From: a virus
Taxonomy: Duplodnaviria; Heunggongvirae; Uroviricota; Caudoviricetes
DNA: 64,000 nucleotides
IMG/VR virus record: IMGVR_UViG_3300021319_000003
Direction: 5' to 3' (one strand)
The position numbers and the translations under genes are program-made. The notes beneath the pieces are model-generated. The model was not told the origin of the DNA, made no database searches, and worked only from the letters and a program-made list of their open reading frames with translations. Position 1 is the first letter of the stretch, and every line of letters begins with the position of its first letter. Positions 2,136 to 64,000 of this stretch are shown piece after piece.

Positions 2136-4364
2136 ATGAAAAAGTATGCGCCATTGCTGAAAAAAGAACACCATACTTTTCACAAACAGCCAGCCTTTGT
2201 TTACAACCAGGGCGGCCGCAATAAAGGCAGAGACGGAGAATTTTATTACATTTATTGTGAAAAATGCCATACATGGCACAAATTTTATTATATAAAAGAA
2301 ATAGAAGACATTCGCAGGTTTAAAGGCAGGAAATACTGCAATGACCGCATACAGTGTTGTAGGATTGCATGGGATATCCTTGAACATAGAGAGGATTTCC
2401 CAACAATGCAAGATATCCTCAATAAGTATGGTAAAGTTCTCAAAAAGCTTTTAAATATAAAGGAGCCGGACCTTAAGCCTGGAGAAAGAACAGATACTTG
2501 TTTCCCTCCTTTGACTCTCGAAGAGGTTTTTGATGGTTACCCAAAACAAAATCATTGGATAACCACCTTACTGAATGATTATGTTGCATGCATATCGGTA
2601 TCATCAATGACTGATGCATTCGATCCTTATGCCTATGATTCATTTAGTGAACCGATGGAGTCTGAGGTGCCCAAGAATCATTTTTACAGCCAGGTAGTCC
2701 CGGCATTGCAAAAGATAATTCGCTATTATGCTGACAAAAATGCGGTGAACACCCCAAAGGTCTCAAATCGCTTCTGGTGGAACGGGAACTATTTTAAGTG
2801 TCCTTCCTGTGGAGCACAAGGGCTTGCAAAGCATATGACAGGAAGCAGACCTAATATTTACCCTGTTAACGCAACTGTGTTCAGTATGGAAGATGGCTCG
2901 AAAACGGTTTCTTTTATCATGAGAGAAGAAATACCACTTAAAGTAAAAGTGACAAATAGTAAGGAATTTCAGGAAAAGCCATTGTATCGATATAGAGAAT
3001 TGCAGGGAAGAATCGTATTTAGCGCAGATGGTCACACCTATATCAAGGCTCCCGTAGAGCTTGGTACGAAAAAGGTAGTTGAAAATAATGATGCGCTTTG
3101 GTCATACAAAAGTAATATTGCAGATGTAACATATTCCAGTACTTCTAAGGGGCCATTTTACGAAGTTGCGATTAAAGCAATGGAGGAGGAAGGGGTCCTT
3201 CCGGCAAACTACGCGGCAATAAATCGATTCCGCAATACCAGTAAACAATTTACCGATTGCTTACAACAGCACCTTAGCGAAACTCGTTGTGGACGAAAAA
3301 TGTGTGAAAAGTTTGCACTGAATTTTTTGCGGCAGATTGATAAAAATGATGACGACCTCCAGATATTAAACAATATCTCGAAAAAGTATAAACTTCCCAA
3401 AAGCAAGAAGTTTAAAAAGGCGTTGATGGATGATGTATACATCACAACCAAAGCATTTAAAGCCTGGAAAGGTCTTGGTTTTAAGGACATAAATGCTTTC
3501 TATAAAATTTTGGAAAACGTAAATTTAAGGAATAGCATTTTCCATTATTATTTTTATAGCAGATATGAAATGGATGCCTTCAAAGGTTTTGTTCAGAAAT
3601 ATCTACGGGTTGGTTCCGAAATGTCTTTTGTGAAAGCACTGGGAAATACATTGGTTAATGATGCCATTCGTATACACCACGGTCTTCAGGATTCTGATAT
3701 TACGGAAGAAGACATTAGCCGGTGTTTTAAACCATCTATCAAAAAAACACATGATGCGCTTGTGGCTCTTGCAGATGTACGAAGGGAAATGGAAATTAAA
3801 ATCCAGGCACAGCAAAACATCGATGAGCAGGTACAGCTCTACAAGCAGGCAAAACAAGATGGTAAAAAGACCATGGCCGGTATTGCCATGAGAGAAATTG
3901 TTCAAAACAAACTTGAAAAAGACGGGAAGATTCTTTATACTGAAGAAGAAGTGCGTAAGTATGAAAAGGAGATTAACGGCTTCAAGTTTATTCTACCCAG
4001 AAAAACTGCGGATTTGGTTGCAGCAGGTAAAAAGTTGCACAATTGTGTTGGTCATTGCTATCTTAAACCTGCTTTGTGTAAAACTTCTACAATTGTATTG
4101 ATGGAGAAGGACGAAAACCTTTGTGGTTGTATCGAGATTCACAACAATACAATTCGACAGGCATACGGTCCGTGCAACAACAAGTTAAAGGATGACGTCA
4201 AGGCAGCTTTTGAAACCTGGAGAGTTTCCTGTGGAATAATGGAAAATCTTGTTGGTGCAGTTTTGCCAGCCGACGACGCCACTATCCCCAAAGACCTTGT
4301 AAGAAAGATTTGGGCGGAAATCGTAGAAGAGTATAACCTGCAAGAATACAAAGAGGCGGCATAG
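2136..4364 (+). CDS. large Cys-rich hypothetical protein (742 aa), possibly PcfJ-like
   Basis: Longest ORF in the window. Several CxxC/CxxH clusters and a conserved-looking C-terminal HNCVGHCYLKPALC...GPCNNKL segment. AGGAGA ribosome-binding site. Confidence 0.6.
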   Translation: MKKYAPLLKKEHHTFHKQPAFVYNQGGRNKGRDGEFYYIYCEKCHTWHKFYYIKEIEDIRRFKGRKYCNDRIQCCRIAWDILEHREDFPTMQDILNKYGKVLKKLLNIKEPDLKPGERTDTCFPPLTLEEVFDGYPKQNHWITTLLNDYVACISVSSMTDAFDPYAYDSFSEPMESEVPKNHFYSQVVPALQKIIRYYADKNAVNTPKVSNRFWWNGNYFKCPSCGAQGLAKHMTGSRPNIYPVNATVFSMEDGSKTVSFIMREEIPLKVKVTNSKEFQEKPLYRYRELQGRIVFSADGHTYIKAPVELGTKKVVENNDALWSYKSNIADVTYSSTSKGPFYEVAIKAMEEEGVLPANYAAINRFRNTSKQFTDCLQQHLSETRCGRKMCEKFALNFLRQIDKNDDDLQILNNISKKYKLPKSKKFKKALMDDVYITTKAFKAWKGLGFKDINAFYKILENVNLRNSIFHYYFYSRYEMDAFKGFVQKYLRVGSEMSFVKALGNTLVNDAIRIHHGLQDSDITEEDISRCFKPSIKKTHDALVALADVRREMEIKIQAQQNIDEQVQLYKQAKQDGKKTMAGIAMREIVQNKLEKDGKILYTEEEVRKYEKEINGFKFILPRKTADLVAAGKKLHNCVGHCYLKPALCKTSTIVLMEKDENLCGCIEIHNNTIRQAYGPCNNKLKDDVKAAFETWRVSCGIMENLVGAVLPADDATIPKDLVRKIWAEIVEEYNLQEYKEAA

Positions 4365-21636: not shown

Positions 21637-21711
21637 GCCGATGTAGCTCAATAGGGAGAGAGCACCGAAACTGTAACCTCGGCGACCCAGGTTCGAGTCC
21701 TGGCATTGGCT
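21637..21711 (+). tRNA. tRNA with atypical (9-10 nt) anticodon loop, isotype unresolved
   Basis: Acceptor GCCGATG/CATTGGC, D arm GCTC...GAGC, T arm CCAGG-TTCGAGT-CCTGG. The anticodon arm has only a 4-bp stem CCGA/TCGG with loop AACTGTAACC. Confidence 0.5.
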
Positions 21712-26594: not shown

Positions 26595-26992
26595 GGGGAC
26601 GAAATTGGTTTCGACAGGGTGTTGAAGCCGTAAGATTCGCAGACCGATGGTTATGACGTCTAACTCATTAACCGCTAAATTTAACTGACGAAGTTGAATA
26701 TCGTCTCGCTGCCTAATCTGCCGTAAGGTAGATTGGTTAGCCCCTATCGTATCACTAGCTGTGAGCAGGGCGGTAGGTTTCAAATAAACACAGCAAACGT
26801 CAGGAGGCCCGCTCGACGTAAACAACACGGGGAGTTTTCCTGCTTTCGAAAAAGCAGGTGGTGGAGGTGTAGACCATTACGCTTTGTTCGGCTGGTTACA
26901 CCCTAGAGAATGGCGCTCTTAAAAATGCCTATTGCGATAATGTCTTACAGGTGGATGCATTTTGGACACGGGTTCGACTCCCGTCGTCTCCA
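26595..26992 (+). ncRNA. ssrA: tmRNA (ssrA), tag reading frame ...DEVEYRLAA*
   Basis: 5' GGGGACGAAATTGGTTTCGACAGGG matches the tmRNA 5' consensus. 3' T arm ACGGG-TTCGACT-CCCGT and acceptor CGTCTCC pair with the 5' GGGGACG. Internal ORF GAC GAA GTT GAA TAT CGT CTC GCT GCC TAA ends in LAA like canonical tags. Confidence 0.75.
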
Positions 26993-26995
26993 CGG

Positions 26996-58151: not shown

Positions 58152-58691
58152 ATGGAGCTAAAGAAGCTAAGCAAATTCTTATCTCTGATTTTGCGCCATA
58201 AGCCAGAGACAATAGGCATCACGCTTGACGAGCATGGCTGGGCTAATGTGGAAGAACTGCTGCAAAAAATAAATAAGACAGGCCACAGTATAGACCTTCC
58301 CCTGCTGGAGAGAATTGTCGCAGAGAACGACAAACAAAGGTTTTCGTTCAGCGCAGACAGAAAAAAGATAAGAGCCAACCAGGGACATTCGATACATGTG
58401 GATGTGGAGCTGAAGCCGGTGAAACCGCCCGCCGTACTATATCACGGTACTGTAGAAAAGAACAGCGCTTCCATTGAGGCAAAAGGACTGATAAAAGGAA
58501 ATAGGCTGCATGTACATTTATCGGAGAACGTAGAAACCGCGACAAAGGTAGCGGCCAGACGCAAAGGCAAGAATATTATTTACAGGGTGTTTGCTGGTGA
58601 GATGTACAGGGATGGTTTCCTGTTCTACCAGTCCGTCAATGGCGTATGGTTAACGGACAGAGTGCCGGCAAAATATTTGTCAAGGTTATGA
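58152..58691 (+). CDS. kptA: RNA 2'-phosphotransferase (Tpt1/KptA family)
   Basis: LSKFLSLILRHKPETIGITLDEHGWANVEELL, HGT, and R-x-HVHL motifs across 179 aa match the KptA/Tpt1 consensus. Confidence 0.8.
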   Translation: MELKKLSKFLSLILRHKPETIGITLDEHGWANVEELLQKINKTGHSIDLPLLERIVAENDKQRFSFSADRKKIRANQGHSIHVDVELKPVKPPAVLYHGTVEKNSASIEAKGLIKGNRLHVHLSENVETATKVAARRKGKNIIYRVFAGEMYRDGFLFYQSVNGVWLTDRVPAKYLSRL

Positions 58692-58710
58692 AAAAGGAGC
58701 GTGAATAACT

Positions 58711-59013
58711 GTGGCGGTTAATGATAAAATCAGAGAAATGGCCCACGAAGAGGCTTTTAAGCATTATTTCTGCAACGTCGGTGAAAGTGATTGGCCGGAT
58801 GACCCGGACGCATTCATGGATAAAGTTGATCGGGATGAAGAATATGAATGTGGGGCCGATGAACTATCGTACGAAGATGAAAACGGAAAGTGCATGGATA
58901 TCTGGGCGCCATTTGAGACATACAGTATTAGCGATATGCGAGAGTTAATGGCGGATTTTGAAATAGCCCTGATTAATTTTTACAATGAAGCAAAGAAACA
59001 TGATAAGGAGTGA
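58711..59013 (+). CDS. hypothetical acidic protein (duplicated; paralog of 63519-63828)
   Basis: About 80% identical at the protein level to 63519-63828 (VNDKIREMA..EAFKHYFCNVG.SDWPDDPDAFMDKV...). GTG start. Confidence 0.55.
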   Translation: MAVNDKIREMAHEEAFKHYFCNVGESDWPDDPDAFMDKVDRDEEYECGADELSYEDENGKCMDIWAPFETYSISDMRELMADFEIALINFYNEAKKHDKE

Positions 59014-59286
59014 TTGGTTATGGCACTGAAATGGATTCCTAACGAATTGGTATTAAAGCATAAGGGGGTGTTTATCTATCACATTTACAGACATGACGAC
59101 CATGAAGGCGGGGTTCGTGAATACTGTTTTGGCCTGGACGAATTCGGCAGCGACGACGGCACGGATGAGGATAGCGGCACATTGTGTTCGATGTGCGGGA
59201 TTTGCCGTCCTATGATTCCAATTTGGATGTCGAAGATAATCTGCGCAAGGCCATTGATAACGGCGAAATCACGCAGGATTATGTGA
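59014..59286 (+). CDS. hypothetical protein
   Basis: 90-aa ORF found only in the first copy of the duplicated segment. Confidence 0.45.
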   Translation: MVMALKWIPNELVLKHKGVFIYHIYRHDDHEGGVREYCFGLDEFGSDDGTDEDSGTLCSMCGICRPMIPIWMSKIICARPLITAKSRRIM

Positions 59287-59303
59287 AGACGGAGGAATGA
59301 GCC

Positions 59304-59606
59304 ATGAAATACGACATCGTTCTCTGCGAATGCATTGGCAATAAAGGTCTTAACAAAGCAATCGTAGCTGAAATGGCTGATATGCTTAATGACGGCGAGT
59401 TCTATCCCGTAGAATTTTACGCTGACCATGCTGAAGCGTCAGCTATCGGCTTCATTTCTCGTACAATCGCTGAGAAGCTGCAGTTTGACTACGACGAGCT
59501 AAAGGCGCATATCGGCGGCATCCTTGACGAAGACCATGAAATGGTTTACGAAATTGACGGGGTAAAGATTTTTATCGGAGATAATGGAGAAGACGAGGAG
59601 GACTAA
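59304..59606 (+). CDS. hypothetical protein (duplicated; paralog of 63830-end)
   Basis: Nucleotide sequence from about 59345 to 59470 is essentially identical to 63880-64000. Confidence 0.55.
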   Translation: MKYDIVLCECIGNKGLNKAIVAEMADMLNDGEFYPVEFYADHAEASAIGFISRTIAEKLQFDYDELKAHIGGILDEDHEMVYEIDGVKIFIGDNGEDEED

Positions 59607-59608
59607 AA

Positions 59609-59884
59609 ATGGCAACAGATAAACATATGTGGGCCGGTTGCGAATGTCTCGCCCATTTGGATAATGTCAAATGCTGGCAGGAACGATGCGGAGACACCAT
59701 CGAAAATACGCTCATGGACGCCGTTAAACTCATCTACTCAATGACTTATGGAGTTTCCACTCTTCAGGCAGATGAAGATGAGTTACGGCCCATCGTAAAA
59801 GAGGTAATGCCGGTGCTCATCAAGACGATGCGGGATAATGGTGTCCCTGTATGGAATCCGGAGGCAGATAGCTATGAGTTCTAA
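59609..59884 (+). CDS. hypothetical protein
   Basis: 91-aa ORF with GGAGGACTAAAAATG ribosome-binding site. Confidence 0.5.
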   Translation: MATDKHMWAGCECLAHLDNVKCWQERCGDTIENTLMDAVKLIYSMTYGVSTLQADEDELRPIVKEVMPVLIKTMRDNGVPVWNPEADSYEF

Positions 59885-60119
59885 TGTGCCTTTACTGATT
59901 GAGCTGCACGAAACAGTCTATGTAAGAGACAAGGAAGATGTCTTAAAAGGCGCATTCATGGCTGACATTTGCCATATCGAGCATATCGAATCGGCGCAGC
60001 CAGAATCTTATGTGGGCGATAAGCAGGCATGGATTGACAGGCGTAAAAAGCATGATATCGAGAAATGCTGGGGAGAATACTCGGCTCCTCGCTATTTAGT
60101 ATGGGTTAACAGTATATAA
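59874..60119 (+). CDS. hypothetical protein
   Basis: ATG with GGAGG ribosome-binding site. Overlaps the upstream stop. Confidence 0.5.
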   Translation: MSSNVPLLIELHETVYVRDKEDVLKGAFMADICHIEHIESAQPESYVGDKQAWIDRRKKHDIEKCWGEYSAPRYLVWVNSI

Positions 60120-60134
60120 GTATTAAGAGAAAGG

Positions 60135-60395
60135 ATGGATATCTTGGACATAACAACAGCATCAGAAGAAGTAACTATTTCTCGCAAAAAATTATATTGC
60201 TTCGCGAGAATGTATCAAGCTTTGGAGACTACAGGTTCCCCATTTTCTGGCTGTGCATATTGTAAGGTGCACTGCAATGATGGCGACAGTTATAGAAAAA
60301 TCAAAGATTATTTCAGGAGACTTACGGGCGTTAATCTTAGCATAATATTGCCTCAAGAGGTTAACCTAGACACAGAACAAGACATACTCATTTGA
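60135..60395 (+). CDS. hypothetical protein
   Basis: 86-aa ORF with AGAGAAAGGATG ribosome-binding site. Confidence 0.45.
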   Translation: MDILDITTASEEVTISRKKLYCFARMYQALETTGSPFSGCAYCKVHCNDGDSYRKIKDYFRRLTGVNLSIILPQEVNLDTEQDILI

Positions 60396-60639
60396 AAGCT
60401 TTATGCGATATGGCTAGGAAAAGAATTGTAGATTGGGCATTTTGCTAGACATTCACTAGAAGGATCACATGTAAAGTCCACTATGTTCGAAACTTTCCAG
60501 CGGTCGTGGCGAATTTTTTCTTCGCCTTTAATTTCCATGAAAGAGTCAGACACATACATACGAGATATACGATGTCGTTGGTTTGTTATAGGACAGATTC
60601 CCTCACGTGCTTTGATATTATTCATTACAAGTCTCTCCC

Positions 60640-61866
60640 TTATATATCTAAATTCAATTTTCCGCAGCCCAGATAAATCATAGTCTTGAAATACTCATCG
60701 TTACGGAATCCGCGGGCACGGCGCTTTATATTCTGGATAATGCTATTCATGCCTTCCAAAATAGCGTTGGTGTAGCGATAGTCAAAGTAATTGAGTATTT
60801 CCTGTCAGTGATTTTTTAGCAGTTTAGCAAAGTTTTTCATGGGGGTAAGTCGCGAACGTGTGAGCCAATTGTACAGCTGGTTAAGACGCTCTTCAGCGGT
60901 GGTGCGGTTAAAAGATGTCTCGTAAATATCCTGCAGGGTAACGCGCATAGCGTAGGCTCTAGCCGTTTTCAGGCGCTTGTGCATTAGCGACTCCTTGCGC
61001 TCAAGCTGTTTATCGGTGAGATTCGCATCATTCTTGAGCCAGAGCCATTTGCTCTTGTTAAGCAGGTGCTTATACCAAGGACCTTGCCTGACTTCATCGC
61101 GGCGAACCTCGTCCAGAGCTTCATTGATATGCTTGATGACATGGAATTTATCGATGACAGTGCTGCTGTTGACGAAGTGCTCGTTAATGCCTTTCTTGAA
61201 GCCCAAGGACATATCGCAGGTGACGATTTTGATATTGCCCGGAATGCCTTTATGTTCCTTGAAGTCTTTTACGAACCGATCTACGGTGGCAGAATCTTTG
61301 CCGTTAGTAACAAAGATAACCTTGCGTTGGGCCAAGTCAACAACTACGGTGACATACTTGTGACCTTTCTTGCTGGTCTCGTCGATGCCGATAGCATTGA
61401 CTTCGGAGTAATCTTCACGGGCGCGGGCCTCATCGACATAATGCTTGATGAACCGCCAGAGGCGGGTGTCATGCTCATCTACCATATTGGCAATAGTGGC
61501 GACAGGCAGGTGCTTAGCCAGCTCCACAACCCAGCCTTCGAAGAGTAGGGTAAAACCAGAACCTTCTCTAGCCCAAGGGACGCTGACGGTTTTTACACCA
61601 TGTTCGCCGCACTTAATCCGTGGTAGGTCAGCATGGATATAGGTCTTGTATTGAAAGAAATTAAGGTGGCGCCAGGTTCTAGGCGTCGTGTCGTAGGCAG
61701 TAGTTTCAGCTTCGCATTCGGGGCAAGCAAACTTACTGCCTCTGGGAAAGGAGAGCTCTATATGAAGTTCCATAGTTCCGGATGAGTCCGGCTTGAACTC
61801 CACCTTGGATATAGACCAAGGTTCCGGCAGGTTCAAAGCTGCCGCAAATAAGTCAGTTGTATTCAT
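60640..61866 (-). pseudogene. ISL3-family transposase with an in-frame TGA (codons 60805-60807)
   Basis: The N-terminal zinc-finger and DDE ISL3 regions are intact for 353 aa. A TGA then sits where ISL3 transposases usually have Trp (KNH*QEILNYF). The conserved C-terminus YRYTNAILEGMNSIIQNIKRRARGFRNDEYFKTMIYLGCGKL continues in the same frame. Confidence 0.7.
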
Positions 61867-61945
61867 GATAAGTAAGATAACGCCTTTCTGTCTTATAATC
61901 TCATGGATATAATTCTATAAGATTTTTGGGTGGGCTTCAAGCCCT
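60640..61945 (-). mobile_element. ISL3-family insertion sequence (approximate ends)
   Basis: Encodes an ISL3-type transposase. Terminal imperfect inverted repeats GCAGCCCAGATAAATC / GAAGCCCACCCAAAAATC lie near 60662 and 61945. Inserted immediately upstream of a truncated tnpB. Confidence 0.6.
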
Positions 61946-62417
61946 TACCCACAGTAAACAGCGAAAGGCCAAGTTAGGTTCTGGTCAATGGAAAAAACAA
62001 CGTGTACGAGTTGCTCGTGTTCACGAAAAAATTACAAACACGAGGAATGATTTTCAGCACAAATTATCTTATCACTTGGTTAATGAAAATTCCCTCGTTG
62101 CCGTTGAAAAATTAAACGTCAAGGGCATGGTAAAGAATAAAAAATTAGCTAAGGCAATAAGTGACGTTGCATGGGGAATGTTCTTCGAAAAACTGGACTA
62201 TAAAACCAAAGAGCGTGGCGGGAAATTGGTAAAAATTCCAACGTTCTATCCGTCCAGCCAAACATGCCATGTCTGCGGATTTCAGAATCCAATCGTCAAA
62301 GATTTAAGCGTTCGAGACTGGGTTTGCCCGCACTGCGGAGAATCCCTCGACCGTGACCGAAACGCGGCAATCAACATCTTAAAAAAGGCGCTTTCGATGA
62401 AAACGAAAGTTGCCTAA
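61926..62417 (+). pseudogene. TnpB (IS605/IS1341-type OrfB) C-terminal fragment
   Basis: RuvC-II/III and zinc-finger region (KLAKAISDVAWGMF...CHVCG...CPHCG...DRDRNAAINI). The N-terminal ~240 aa are missing. The open frame starts exactly at the ISL3 boundary. Confidence 0.65.
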
Positions 62418-62600
62418 ATCACATAAAATCAGTACCGTGGGTCACACGGGAACTGGCCCTCAACGGGGCGAACGCCTTTGGAGAGCGCGTAAGACGGGCC
62501 TGACTAAGGTCAGGGCGCTGCGCTCGATGAATCAGGAATCCGCCACCTCTTTAAGTGGCGGAGTGTTCAAGAAATCAGCAATTTCTGACCCAACGTATCC
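62418..62600 (+). ncRNA. putative TnpB omega RNA (reRNA) scaffold / IS605-type right end
   Basis: Hairpin-dense region directly 3' of tnpB (CGTGGGTCACACGGGAAC, GGGCCTGACTAAGGTCAGGGCGC, CCGCCACCTCTTTAAGTGGCGG). The track ORF 62410-62712 overlapping it is judged largely spurious. Confidence 0.4.
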
Positions 62601-62708
62601 ACATACACTCGATGAGCACATCGAAGCAGCTCGTAAATGGTTGGCTGCGCCGATAAAACATGACGGAAAAATGATAAAAGAAATTTGTGCAAGAATGGAG
62701 GAGCATAA

Positions 62709-63074
62709 ATGACCGAAGAACAGATGAAGAAGCGGCTTTATGAGCTTTATCAGCTTGACTGGATGATGTCTCATGGATACAGCCTGAGAGACGTCATTAA
62801 GGGCATGGACAACCATGAGGCTGTAGACCACGACAGCCATATCCTTGATAGCGAAGTTGGCATGCGCGCAGACATTGAAGGCATCTTTGCAGAGTGGGAA
62901 GGCGACGTAGGGGTCCCCGGCGGCTGCATTTATGTTTGTTTTGATGAGTTCTGCGGCGCGGAGCTTACCATGCCGGATTACATCCAGGGACTTCTGGATG
63001 TAGCTGATGATGATGAGCTGACAGAAGCCTACAAGAAATGGCTCAAAGAAAACGGAAGCGAGGTACAGGTATGA
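62709..63074 (+). CDS. hypothetical acidic protein
   Basis: 121-aa ORF with GGAGGAGCATAAATG ribosome-binding site. Confidence 0.5.
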   Translation: MTEEQMKKRLYELYQLDWMMSHGYSLRDVIKGMDNHEAVDHDSHILDSEVGMRADIEGIFAEWEGDVGVPGGCIYVCFDEFCGAELTMPDYIQGLLDVADDDELTEAYKKWLKENGSEVQV

Positions 63075-63095: not shown

Positions 63096-63500
63096 TTGAA
63101 GCAGATTACTTGGAAACACCACGCAATGTGGAAATTTGCGACATTTAAGTGGAAACGTACATCGGAAGCATTGCCTGGGCTGTATCCCGACAAAAATGTT
63201 TTGTTCTATGGCCCGAAGTTTGGGGTAGCGCACGGGAGATATGAGCAGGGCGCATTTTATGTAAACGGTTCATCAATACATATCTCATTGGAGTTTGTAA
63301 CTTGGTGGGCATATGAGCCGGAACATCCGAGAGAAACAGTGGATGCCTGGGAAGTCCTGATTGATTACGGCCGAGGCTGGGAAGTAGAATGCATAAAAGA
63401 GGATGAAGCGGAGGCTAAACGTTTCCTGAAATTTTCTGAGAAAGATGCGCCGCAATGGCCGCATAAACTTCGCCATTGTTGTATCTTCCGAGATGAGTAA
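63096..63500 (+). CDS. hypothetical protein
   Basis: 134-aa ORF. Confidence 0.5.
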   Translation: MKQITWKHHAMWKFATFKWKRTSEALPGLYPDKNVLFYGPKFGVAHGRYEQGAFYVNGSSIHISLEFVTWWAYEPEHPRETVDAWEVLIDYGRGWEVECIKEDEAEAKRFLKFSEKDAPQWPHKLRHCCIFRDE

Positions 63501-63518
63501 AAAAGGAGCGATGATAAC

Positions 63519-63828
63519 CATGGAAGTTAATGATAAAATCAGAGAAATGGCCTGTAAAGAGGCATTTAAGCATTATTTCTGCAATGTTGGCGACAGTGAT
63601 TGGCCGGATGACCCTGACGCATTCATGGACAAAGTTGAATCCCAGAGTGAAGAGGATGAATGTGAGGCCGCCGAACTGTCGTACGAAGACGAAAACGGAA
63701 AGTGTATGGATATCTGGGCGCCATTTGCGCAGTATAGCATTGTCGATGTGCAAGGGTTAATGGCGGATTTTGAAACAGCTCTGATTAATTTCTACGAAGA
63801 AGCAAAGAAACTCGATACGGAGGAATAA
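63519..63828 (+). CDS. hypothetical acidic protein (duplicate of 58711-59013)
   Basis: ATG with AAAAGGAGCGATGATAACCATG ribosome-binding site. Paralogous to 58711-59013. Confidence 0.55.
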
Positions 63829-63829
63829 A

Positions 63830-64000
63830 CATGAAATACGATATTGTTCTCTGCGAGTGTGTTGGCAATAAAAGTCTTAACAAAGCAATCGTAGCTGAAA
63901 TGGCTGATATGCTTAATGACGGCGAGTTCTATCCCGTAGAATTTTACGCTGACCATGCTGAAGCGTCAGCTATCGGCTTCATTTCTCGTACAATCGCTGA
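63830..64000 (+). CDS. hypothetical protein, partial at window edge (duplicate of 59304-59606)
   Basis: MKYDIVLCECVGNK... is near-identical to the 59304 gene. Runs off the window. Confidence 0.5.

Follow-up and report, generated by a model that had tools for sequence, protein, structure and literature searches.

The analysis covered the window, 64 kb of a jumbo phage genome of about 340 kb, plus a further 1.9 kb. The window contains a phage ORF with a replaced 3' end, a complete ISL3-family insertion sequence (IS) with two passenger ORFs and an interrupted transposase gene, the 3' part of a tnpB gene, and an ωRNA (reRNA) scaffold that runs up to the right end of a TnpB element. We set the ends of the ISL3 element by comparison with independent copies bearing 8-bp target duplications, which places it at 60083..61970 (1,888 bp) with its transposase on the minus strand. 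First, the right inverted repeat (IRR) occupies 60083..60107 on the plus strand (GGCTCCTCGCTATTTAGTATGGGTT); it differs from the IRR of the relatives by one mismatch, and this 25-mer occurs as a single copy in the window against zero expected by chance. Second, the left inverted repeat (IRL) at 61946..61970 (GGCCTTTCGCTGTTTACTGTGGGTA in the minus-strand reading) has the sequence with which all the relatives start, three contigs beginning exactly there, and position 61970 is the start of homology to six independent ISL3 copies (L011–L016). The IRL and IRR match at 19 of 25 positions and are thus imperfect terminal inverted repeats. Third, the same ends recur in four independent insertion contexts (L011/L012, L013, L014, L015), and 8-bp direct repeats flank sister copies with these ends (ATTGATTA in L011 and ATTTTTCT in L013). 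The window copy has no 8-bp target duplication, its left flank reading GAATACTC and its right flank AAGTTAGG; the missing duplication is a property of this copy and not of the ISL3 element type.

An earlier, sequence-only reading of this DNA had placed the left end of the IS at 60640 and its right boundary near 61925, for a size of about 1.3 kb; the IRR at 60083–60107, the IRL running to 61970 and the inclusion of the two passenger ORFs supersede these values. No inverted repeats were found beside the transposase ORF (60600–60660 and 61870–61930), and no target duplications were found either with those earlier boundaries or with the 3' homology break at 60649. The 64-kb window holds no second ISL3 copy.

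The transposase gene (61866..60640, minus strand) spans 408 codons and is, as the same reading had it, intact but for one TGA, which falls at codon 354 (60805..60807, minus strand; context AAT CAC TGA CAG). Past the TGA the frame resumes and runs to a TAA at 60640–60642. The 408-aa product with W at the stop matches the Pfam domains Zn_ribbon_ISL3, HTH_Tnp_ISL3 and DDE_Tnp_ISL3 (PF01610 at 2.4e-71, also PF13542 and PF14690) and the NCBIfam model transpos_ISL3 (NF033550) with 342 bits against a cutoff of 180. With the TGA at codon 354, the uninterrupted frame expected of an active copy is absent. Trp occupies the TGA column in every relative with at least 80% identity, and K, S or F in the more distant ones; Trp354 is thus conserved within the subgroup and not family-wide, as against the Trp that the earlier reading took to be conserved among family members. 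In the DNA of the relatives the codon is TGG, from which TGA is reached by a single G-to-A change. Across codons 355–405, comparison with three relatives gave 15–18 synonymous and 1–2 non-synonymous changes, and the codons past the TGA thus still bear the signature of purifying selection. Such undamaged codons fit a recent mutation and would equally fit continued use via read-through.

The 353-aa truncated product (P0013) is called on 16 contigs, and on all ten of the contigs that we fetched the called product ends at the TGA. An assembly chimera or artefact is ruled out, as independent JGI, ENA and Logan assemblies agree. The proposed check of assemblies for a TGG/TGA polymorphism gave no TGG allele: the exact TGG version was not found in a collection of 15 billion proteins. 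The 55 C-terminal residues of the transposase, which the TGA cuts off, are its most conserved block (YTNAILEGMNSIIQNIKRRARGFRN) and probably contain the third acidic residue of the catalytic DDE triad; this role is assigned to E371 by analogy with IS256/Mutator-type transposases, no solved ISL3 transposase structure that could place the catalytic Glu being detectable by sequence. The ISL3 element should accordingly be incapable of mobilizing itself, barring occasional read-through of the UGA.

The best reading of the TGA is a recent nonsense mutation, as the earlier reading had also proposed; the TGG in the DNA of the relatives and the undamaged downstream codons favor it. Two other accounts of this codon were weighed. 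In one, which we consider very unlikely, read-through at the UGA of codon 354 would be leaky or programmed: the majority of ribosomes would stop there and leave a 353-aa protein that binds DNA but has no catalytic tail, and a few would insert Trp and yield the full-length transposase, transposition thereby being kept low. The UGA does stand in for a Trp codon, and natural read-through usually is a near-cognate reading of UGA by tRNA-Trp. Moreover, the base after the UGA is C, and Poole, Brown and Tate reportedly found in 1995 that UGA-C is the weakest termination context in E. coli; the 51 codons 3' of the TGA are undamaged, and the TGA allele is fixed across the assemblies seen. However, this fixation is uninformative on selection, since the contigs are clonal (of the ten fetched, nine match the window over the region at 100% identity and the tenth at 99.8%). 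Further, a stop at the TGA column was seen in none of the approximately 120 listed relatives, and a 21-sequence alignment shows a sense codon at this position in all of its full-length relatives; P0073, the only listed protein comparable in length, is cut at its N-terminus rather than stopped here.

The other account, for which we see hardly any chance, holds that TGA is recoded as Trp in late infection by means of a suppressor tRNA coded outside the window, in which case the transposase would be intact when read with the code of the phage. The late genes of some large phages use stop-codon recoding, the window has a large tRNA set as well as one tRNA-like gene whose anticodon loop is abnormal, and 64 kb of the approximately 340 kb were seen. 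Nevertheless, among the 93 plus-strand ORFs in the window that reach at least 90 aa, TGA terminates 37, with a median read-through extension of 9 codons, the same as after TAA. LigA ends in TGA, bearing out the earlier remark that the phage's own genes use it as a stop, the anticodon UCA is absent among the 13 tRNAs of the window, and just one of the Trp positions of the transposase has a TGA. The 64-kb window thus shows neither depletion of TGA as a terminator nor a suppressor tRNA, and TGA is an ordinary stop codon in it; with TGA as a common terminator and no suppressor tRNA, the read-through or recoding option that had been offered beside the nonsense mutation is left unsupported.

Two passenger ORFs lie inside the IS ends. 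The first, of 86 aa (60135..60395, plus strand), is 43% identical to a 105-aa ORF at the same place in the sister copy L013, and it has nine homologous clusters (54–64% identity) with a common conserved N-terminal stretch of 45 residues; in related phages it always sits just downstream of an IRR. The second, of 74 aa (60625..60401, minus strand), is a small Cys-containing protein with positional homologues in other ISL3 copies, those of 71–73 aa in L013 and L103 displaying the same G-x-C...C...CP(I/V)Y pattern. The stretch 60396–60640, previously taken for a remnant free of ORFs, is thus a minus-strand gene and internal cargo of the IS. Among 1.8 billion representatives, relatives of the 74-aa ORF beyond its own cluster amounted to two weak partial matches. 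A Pfam search of the passenger genes recovered nothing, and PHROGs gave one weak match, that of the 86-aa ORF to phrog_1664, a family without an assigned function. AlphaFold modelled the 86-aa protein with a pLDDT of 56. The passenger module beside the IRR differs completely between copies whose transposases are 90–95% identical, and related phages hold a solo IRR with the 86-aa gene at other sites, where the transposase has been lost. It is conceivable, though we rather doubt it, that ISL3 acts in this jumbo phage lineage as a shuttle for small accessory genes. The phage would then be keeping the cargo, and the window copy, with its transposase knocked out and its cargo intact, would be a step in that process.

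Immediately adjoining the IRL is a 3' fragment of tnpB (61971..62417, plus strand) of 148 codons, corresponding to approximately codons 229–376 of the intact gene and without a start codon of its own. The 163-aa ORF at 61926–62417 had been described as opening exactly at the ISL3 boundary; in fact, its first 15 codons are IS (IRL) sequence, and the DNA homology of the TnpB fragment starts at 61971 (against L097) or 61976 (against L105 and L106), which puts the junction of the two elements at 61970/61971, flush with the last base of the IRL. This ORF matches only the C-terminal part of the model NF038281 (positions 218–360 of 360; 205.5 bits against a cutoff of 425), and its C-terminal 141 residues align to residues 233–373 of the ISDra2 TnpB (PDB 8BF8/8EXA) with E = 2.5e-42. 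The equivalents of E278 and D361, i.e., the RuvC Glu and Asp, and the CxxC...CxxC zinc finger are kept, and D191 (the RuvC-I Asp), WED and REC are gone; of the RuvC D-E-D triad that, together with the zinc finger, marks a full-length TnpB, the first Asp is missing. The sequence-only reading was therefore right to see a C-terminal fragment retaining just the RuvC/zinc-finger half. Such a stump should be able neither to cut DNA nor to bind its RNA.

Intact relatives of 373–376 aa with about 89% DNA identity are found elsewhere, in bacterial and phage-like contigs, and define a TnpB element of 1,431–1,434 bp, of which the window fragment is the back 40%. These relatives came from a cluster look-up, and a word-indexed protein search with the fragment gave short fragments only. 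The intact sister copies have no TnpA beside them, and the more distant L017 copy has one. The search for the missing N-terminus that had been suggested found none in the 64-kb window, which likewise has no TnpA and no second TnpB copy; the left end of the element is absent, about 835 bp including this end not being in the window.

The region 3' of the TnpB ORF is a complete ωRNA scaffold that extends to the right end of the TnpB element (62418..62570, plus strand; ending ...GTGTTCAA at 62570). This right-end boundary is common to four copies in different contexts, all of which diverge right after GTGTTCAA. Several lines of evidence bear out the hairpin-dense, omega-RNA-like region seen from the sequence, for which folding and covariance models had been put forward as a check. 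The region is a structured RNA with an MFE z of -3.9, and is 95% identical to that of L097, with compensatory changes. The covariance model R1 gives a full-length match and detects this RNA immediately 3' of tnpB across many genera (E down to 3e-14), placing it in a conserved ωRNA family; once the alignment is fitted to the model, paired cells make up 91.5%, compared with 38–45% in slid controls, and an independent RNAalifold run gave 26 pairs, 8 of them with double changes. The window version has an extra hairpin relative to the Megasphaera and Mitsuokella copies. From the boundary and the known layout of TnpB ωRNAs, the guide is predicted to occupy the first ~16 nt past the right end (62571..62586, plus strand; GAAATCAGCAATTTCT). 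No second ωRNA was found in the 64-kb window.

Completeness of the scaffold raises the alternative that the TnpB stump, the intact ωRNA or both have been kept for a new job, e.g., as an orphan guide RNA serving in trans a full-length TnpB, be it the host's or one from elsewhere in the phage, or as a regulatory RNA. In its favor one may count the full-length model match, the presence of close intact TnpBs in bacterial and phage-like contigs, and the better conservation of the ωRNA relative to L097 (95%) than of the coding part (84%). However, higher conservation of the RNA is expected in any case, since synonymous sites are free to change in the coding part (of its codon differences from L097, 39 are synonymous and 22 non-synonymous). 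In addition, the stump is without WED, REC and RuvC-I, has neither a start codon nor a ribosome-binding site of its own, and has no outward promoter-like site facing it; as all copies of the locus are clonal, they give no evidence of selection. We regard such a new role as very unlikely.

On the other side of the IS, a phage ORF (59838..60082, plus strand) has had its 3' end replaced by IS sequence, its frame running through the IRR to a stop at 60117–60119; no homologue or paralogue showing its original end was found. The composite had also been said to lie between two copies of a duplicated phage segment. Duplicated segments do flank it (58691–59010 and 63500–63822, 84%; 59289–59623 and 63817–64149, 93%), but they do not abut it: the left duplicate ends about 460 bp before the IRR and the right one begins about 930 bp past the TnpB right end. 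A megablast of the region against GenBank phages gave no match, and in IMG/VR the relatives of the flanking ORFs were limited to one 57% match. No paralogue joining the left and right flank fragments was found, and an empty or pre-deletion site was not recovered from L097, L098, L105 or L106, which have nothing in common with the flanks.

Taken together, the region is very probably a composite in which two transposable elements of a jumbo phage genome, both inactivated, lie side by side, and both represent ordinary genome decay. One is a complete ISL3-family IS with its IRL, IRR, transposase gene and two-gene passenger module, and the other the last 600 bp (61971–62570) of a 1.43-kb TnpB-only IS200/IS605 (IS1341-type) element. 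The ISL3 IRL sits exactly at the break in tnpB. The nesting of IS elements reported earlier stands insofar as an ISL3 element adjoins a truncated TnpB with an ωRNA-like 3' scaffold; a simple nested insertion does not, because there is no 8-bp target duplication and about 835 bp of the TnpB element, left end included, have gone. Rather, the ISL3 element may have inserted into or near the TnpB element, and, the window copy having no target duplication, a later ISL3-associated deletion probably took the 5' part of tnpB together with the left end and some phage DNA. This could have happened by intramolecular transposition or through two ISL3 copies recombining; that ISs bring about deletions by recombination is established (PMC13216065). 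As no related phage with an empty site or the pre-deletion state was found, we infer both the succession of events and the extent of the deletion.

The locus matters mainly for annotation, since with its boundaries corrected three errors are kept from being passed on: a 163-aa "TnpB" with an IS end as its first 15 codons, a 100-aa "gene" whose first half is the ωRNA read as protein, and an IS that is 600 bp too short and whose cargo is credited to the phage. Further, with ISs being uncommon in phages, a lineage in which ISL3 occupies several different sites offers a modest but useful example of the entry, rearrangement and decay of mobile elements, cargo included, in very large phages. For the TnpB catalogue, L105 and L106, the intact sister elements with a defined ωRNA and right end, are ordinary new entries.

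Both elements are new examples of already known types. Like other ISL3-family ISs, the first has a transposase with Zn-ribbon, HTH and DDE_Tnp_ISL3 domains and terminal inverted repeats of about 25 bp starting with GGC; the 8-bp target duplications are present in its sister copies and absent from the window copy. ISPst2, also of the ISL3 family, has been described with two passenger genes (PMC6305408), the number carried by the window element, which differs in that its module is a pair of small unknown ORFs and its transposase has a nonsense codon. The closest annotated transposase in the plasmid collection has 61% identity (Bifidobacterium longum), and all 49 phage matches are below 60% identity, the best being 30%. 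The second element resembles ISDra2 TnpB and the TnpB-only IS200/IS605 (IS1341-type) elements in having the ωRNA scaffold between the tnpB stop and the right end, and its intact 1.43-kb sister copies are without an adjacent TnpA; relative to such intact elements, the window keeps the last 600 bp only, and the RuvC-I Asp, WED, REC and left end are gone. In Rfam, the sole match is a sub-threshold one to RAGATH-18 (RF03064; 24.7 bits against a gathering score of 44.9, E = 0.3), and 11 relatives gave no match. This is a weak local resemblance at 62475–62538, where a long-range stem with GGAG...GAUGAA...AGGAA is found. RAGATH-18 is the reRNA of IS607 TnpBs (PMC11061315). The TnpB fragment itself fits the IS200/IS605 model with 205 bits against 123 bits for IS607. 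Finally, the locus recalls the TldRs, nuclease-dead repressors resembling TnpB, in featuring a TnpB derivative unable to cut DNA beside an ωRNA-like RNA. In TldRs, the N-terminal domains that bind RNA and DNA are retained and RuvC function is lost, whereas the window TnpB keeps the opposite half and its break coincides with an IS end, so that it represents damage rather than domestication.

The minus-strand gene at 61866..60640 (408 codons, closed by a TAA at 60640-60642) carries a single in-frame TGA at 60805-60807. With Trp substituted at this stop, its product matched three ISL3 Pfam domains and the NCBIfam ISL3 model far over the cutoffs, bearing out the ISL3-type assignment of the sequence-only reading. 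We set the boundaries of the element from independent copies of the closest transposases on comparison contigs L011-L016 (84–92% DNA identity). On the 5′ side, the homology begins abruptly at 61970 with GGCCTTTCGCTGTTTACT(A/G)TGGGTA, and three contigs start exactly at this position. On the 3′ side, it ends a few codons ahead of the transposase stop codon, with a matching inverted repeat, GGCTCCTCGCTATTTAGTATGGGT, lying 500–700 bp farther on in every copy; in the window this repeat (IRR) was located at 60083-60107. Direct repeats of 8 bp at the ends are an ISL3 hallmark, and such repeats, ATTGATTA and ATTTTTCT, border both ends in L011/L012 and in L013. Together, these shared ends and repeats set the window element at 60083-61970, a length of 1,888 bp.

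The TGA, at codon 354, had been proposed to replace a conserved Trp. This holds for every relative at least 80% identical to the window transposase but not for the more distant ones, which have K, S or F. Relatives read AAT CAC TGG CA(A/G) in the DNA, against AAT CAC TGA CAG in the window: a single G-to-A transition, as the proposed TGG-to-TGA change requires. The 51 codons past the stop differ from those of three relatives by 15–18 synonymous and only 1–2 non-synonymous changes; this region evolved under selection until recently. In JGI, ENA and Logan samples, the truncated 353-aa transposase was called on 16 contigs. Of ten that were compared, nine matched the window at 100% identity across the region and one at 99.8%. 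The TGA is real, but the population carrying the locus is clonal, and because of this clonality its fixation is uninformative about selection. The TGG/TGA polymorphism sought in these assemblies did not appear, and an otherwise identical TGG allele was absent from a collection of 15 billion proteins. Recoding, the alternative raised for this codon, finds no support in the window: 37 of the 93 ORFs on the plus strand that reach 90 aa or more terminate in TGA (LigA among them, as already noted from the sequence), read-through extensions after TGA are as short as after TAA, and none of the 13 tRNAs has the anticodon UCA. TGA is an ordinary terminator here, and the codon is most simply read as a recent nonsense mutation by which the transposase is disabled. 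Past the stop lies YTNAILEGMNSIIQNIKRRARGFRN, the block most conserved in the ISL3 family; as no solved ISL3 structure was detectable by sequence, we infer that E371 within it may be the catalytic Glu from likeness to IS256/Mutator-type DDE enzymes.

Next to the terminal repeat IRL (61946-61970) lies the remainder of a TnpB element. Of the 360-position IS200/IS605 TnpB model, the 163-codon plus-strand ORF at 61926-62417 covers positions 218-360 alone, in keeping with the C-terminal half already recognized. The frame had been thought to open exactly at the ISL3 boundary; instead, its first 15 codons, TTG start included, are IS sequence, and DNA homology to the closest relative, contig L097 (86%), starts at 61971, immediately past the end of IRL. 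The remaining 148 real codons align to residues 233-373 of ISDra2 TnpB (PDB 8BF8/8EXA). They retain residues equivalent to E278 and D361 as well as the CxxC...CxxC zinc finger, whereas D191 and the WED and REC domains of ISDra2 TnpB are missing; the stump lacks every part needed to act. A search of the 64-kb window for the absent N-terminal half, TnpA, a second ωRNA or a second ISL3 element found none.

Intact proteins of 373–376 aa are present in the 90% cluster of this fragment. Two intact copies were compared: that on L105 has phage-like surroundings, and that on L106 is bacterial in context and adjoins an MCP gene and mazEF. Each has ~89% DNA identity to the window, and the two share 92% identity over 1,431–1,434 bp. 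They define a TnpB-only element of that length without TnpA, of which the window retains the last 600 bp. Similarity ends directly after ...GTGTTCAA in all four copies (window, L097, L105 and L106), placing the right end at 62570, a position confirmed by three Megasphaera copies. L106 also has a second, more distant TnpB-like gene (661-1845; 394 aa) 3 kb from the intact copy, with the mazEF pair between the two. In the closest phage-borne relative (L097 2480-3625), tnpB is nearly full-length and shows no frameshift; TAA codons interrupt it in frame at two places (GAA to TAA near codon 20; AAA to TAA at 3431-3433), and it is probably a pseudogene. Directly after the right end of this TnpB element, a 111-aa ORF (3809-4144; ...LHSQSVQAV...) resembles the N-terminal region of another TnpB, which would make it a second fragment of TnpB type in tandem.

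The ωRNA-like scaffold proposed 3′ of tnpB was corroborated. The 153-nt stretch bounded by the tnpB stop and the right end folds stably (z = -3.9); compared with L097, it is 95% identical and shows compensatory changes. A covariance model derived from the window and L097 RNA sequences found matches (E-values as low as 3e-14) immediately 3′ of tnpB in Megasphaera, Selenomonas, Mitsuokella, an Erysipelotrichaceae MAG, Psychrobacter, Microcoleus and methanogens. In the model-fitted alignment, 91.5% of cells were paired, against 38–45% in slid controls, with double changes in 45 of 48 pairs; an independent MAFFT/RNAalifold analysis of nine sequences gave 26 pairs, eight with compensatory changes. 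The fold, the model matches and the covariation together show that the ωRNA call is correct and the scaffold complete. The sole Rfam hint was a sub-threshold match to RAGATH-18, the reRNA of IS607 TnpBs (PMC11061315), and membership was rejected. The 100-aa ORF at 62410-62712 is chimeric: its first ~54 codons are merely a translation of the ωRNA and right end, and its last 44, which overlap the start of the next gene in ATGA, resemble the 3′ end of a phage gene whose 5′ part has been lost.

A target duplication of 8 bp, sought at the window ISL3 element, is absent, the flanks being GAATACTC on the left and AAGTTAGG on the right. IRL abuts tnpB codon ~229, and IRR abuts a phage ORF whose frame now continues into the IS. 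Missing are ~835 bp of the TnpB element and whatever separated it from that ORF. Intact IS ends, no duplication and one-sided loss are the classic product of adjacent deletion or recombination. Intramolecular transposition by the ISL3 element may have produced an adjacent deletion; alternatively, two same-orientation ISL3 copies could have recombined, such deletion being established IS behaviour (PMC13216065). Since no related contig is syntenic at the composite site, the ancestral arrangement was not recovered, and we can only infer the order of events.

The window, which codes for LigA, an HNH endonuclease, a methyltransferase, an RNA 2′-phosphotransferase, 13 tRNAs and a tmRNA, looks like part of a jumbo phage; the longest contig with the locus is 339,914 bp. 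ARAGORN predicts the tmRNA at 26595-26993 (tag peptide DEVEYRLAA) and, heading the 13-tRNA cluster, a tRNA-like gene at 21637-21711 with an enlarged anticodon loop and no assigned anticodon. The composite had been described as lying between copies of a duplicated phage segment. The direct two-gene duplication is real (58691-59623 and 63500-64000, to ~64149 in contig L001; 84–93% identity), but it lies 0.5–0.9 kb away and looks like an ordinary paralogue array rather than IS-linked. The left copy has an extra ORF of ~280 bp. In related jumbo phages syntenic with other parts of the window, ISL3 or its remains occupy other sites: a complete copy with an 8-bp target duplication lies in L013 (2896-4833) beside the equivalent of ~22.6 kb; in L099 (2959-2983 and 3444-3752), LigA is followed by two IRR-like 25-mers, one of them right after it, and the second precedes an 83-aa cargo-gene homologue without transposase; and L102 has, between the equivalents of 51.2 and 51.9 kb, an IRR and an 84-aa homologue of the 86-aa cargo, again without transposase (3444-3755). 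Evidently, the element has been mobile in this lineage and its cargo outlives the transposase.

Two ORFs make up this cargo in the window, both located between the transposase gene and IRR: one of 74 aa (60625..60401), on the same strand as the transposase, and one of 86 aa (60135-60395), on the opposite strand. The stretch 60396-60640, earlier taken for a possible remnant with no convincing ORF, corresponds to the 74-aa passenger gene. Diverged homologues of both occupy equivalent positions in L013 and L103, with 23–25% identity for the 74-aa ORF and, for the 86-aa ORF, 43% with L013 and 62% with protein P0267 of L103; other copies have unrelated cargo (129 aa in L011; 180 aa with a HEARH motif in L015). 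Across copies with 90–95% identical transposases, the modules from transposase stop codon to IRR are unrelated or strongly diverged (window 60083-60642; L011 4234-4761; L013 4228-4833; L015 1335-2034; L103 128-655). In every copy, DNA homology breaks off at one common position just a few codons short of the stop, which suggests that cargo may be exchanged at a fixed point in this ISL3 subgroup. This variable cargo and its spread among jumbo phages, partly explored here and outside the original claim, are the most interesting residue. ISL3 members with two passenger genes, as in the window element, are known already, e.g., ISPst2 (PMC6305408), and the composite, a real finding, is best seen as a pair of decaying mobile elements, each of a known kind.
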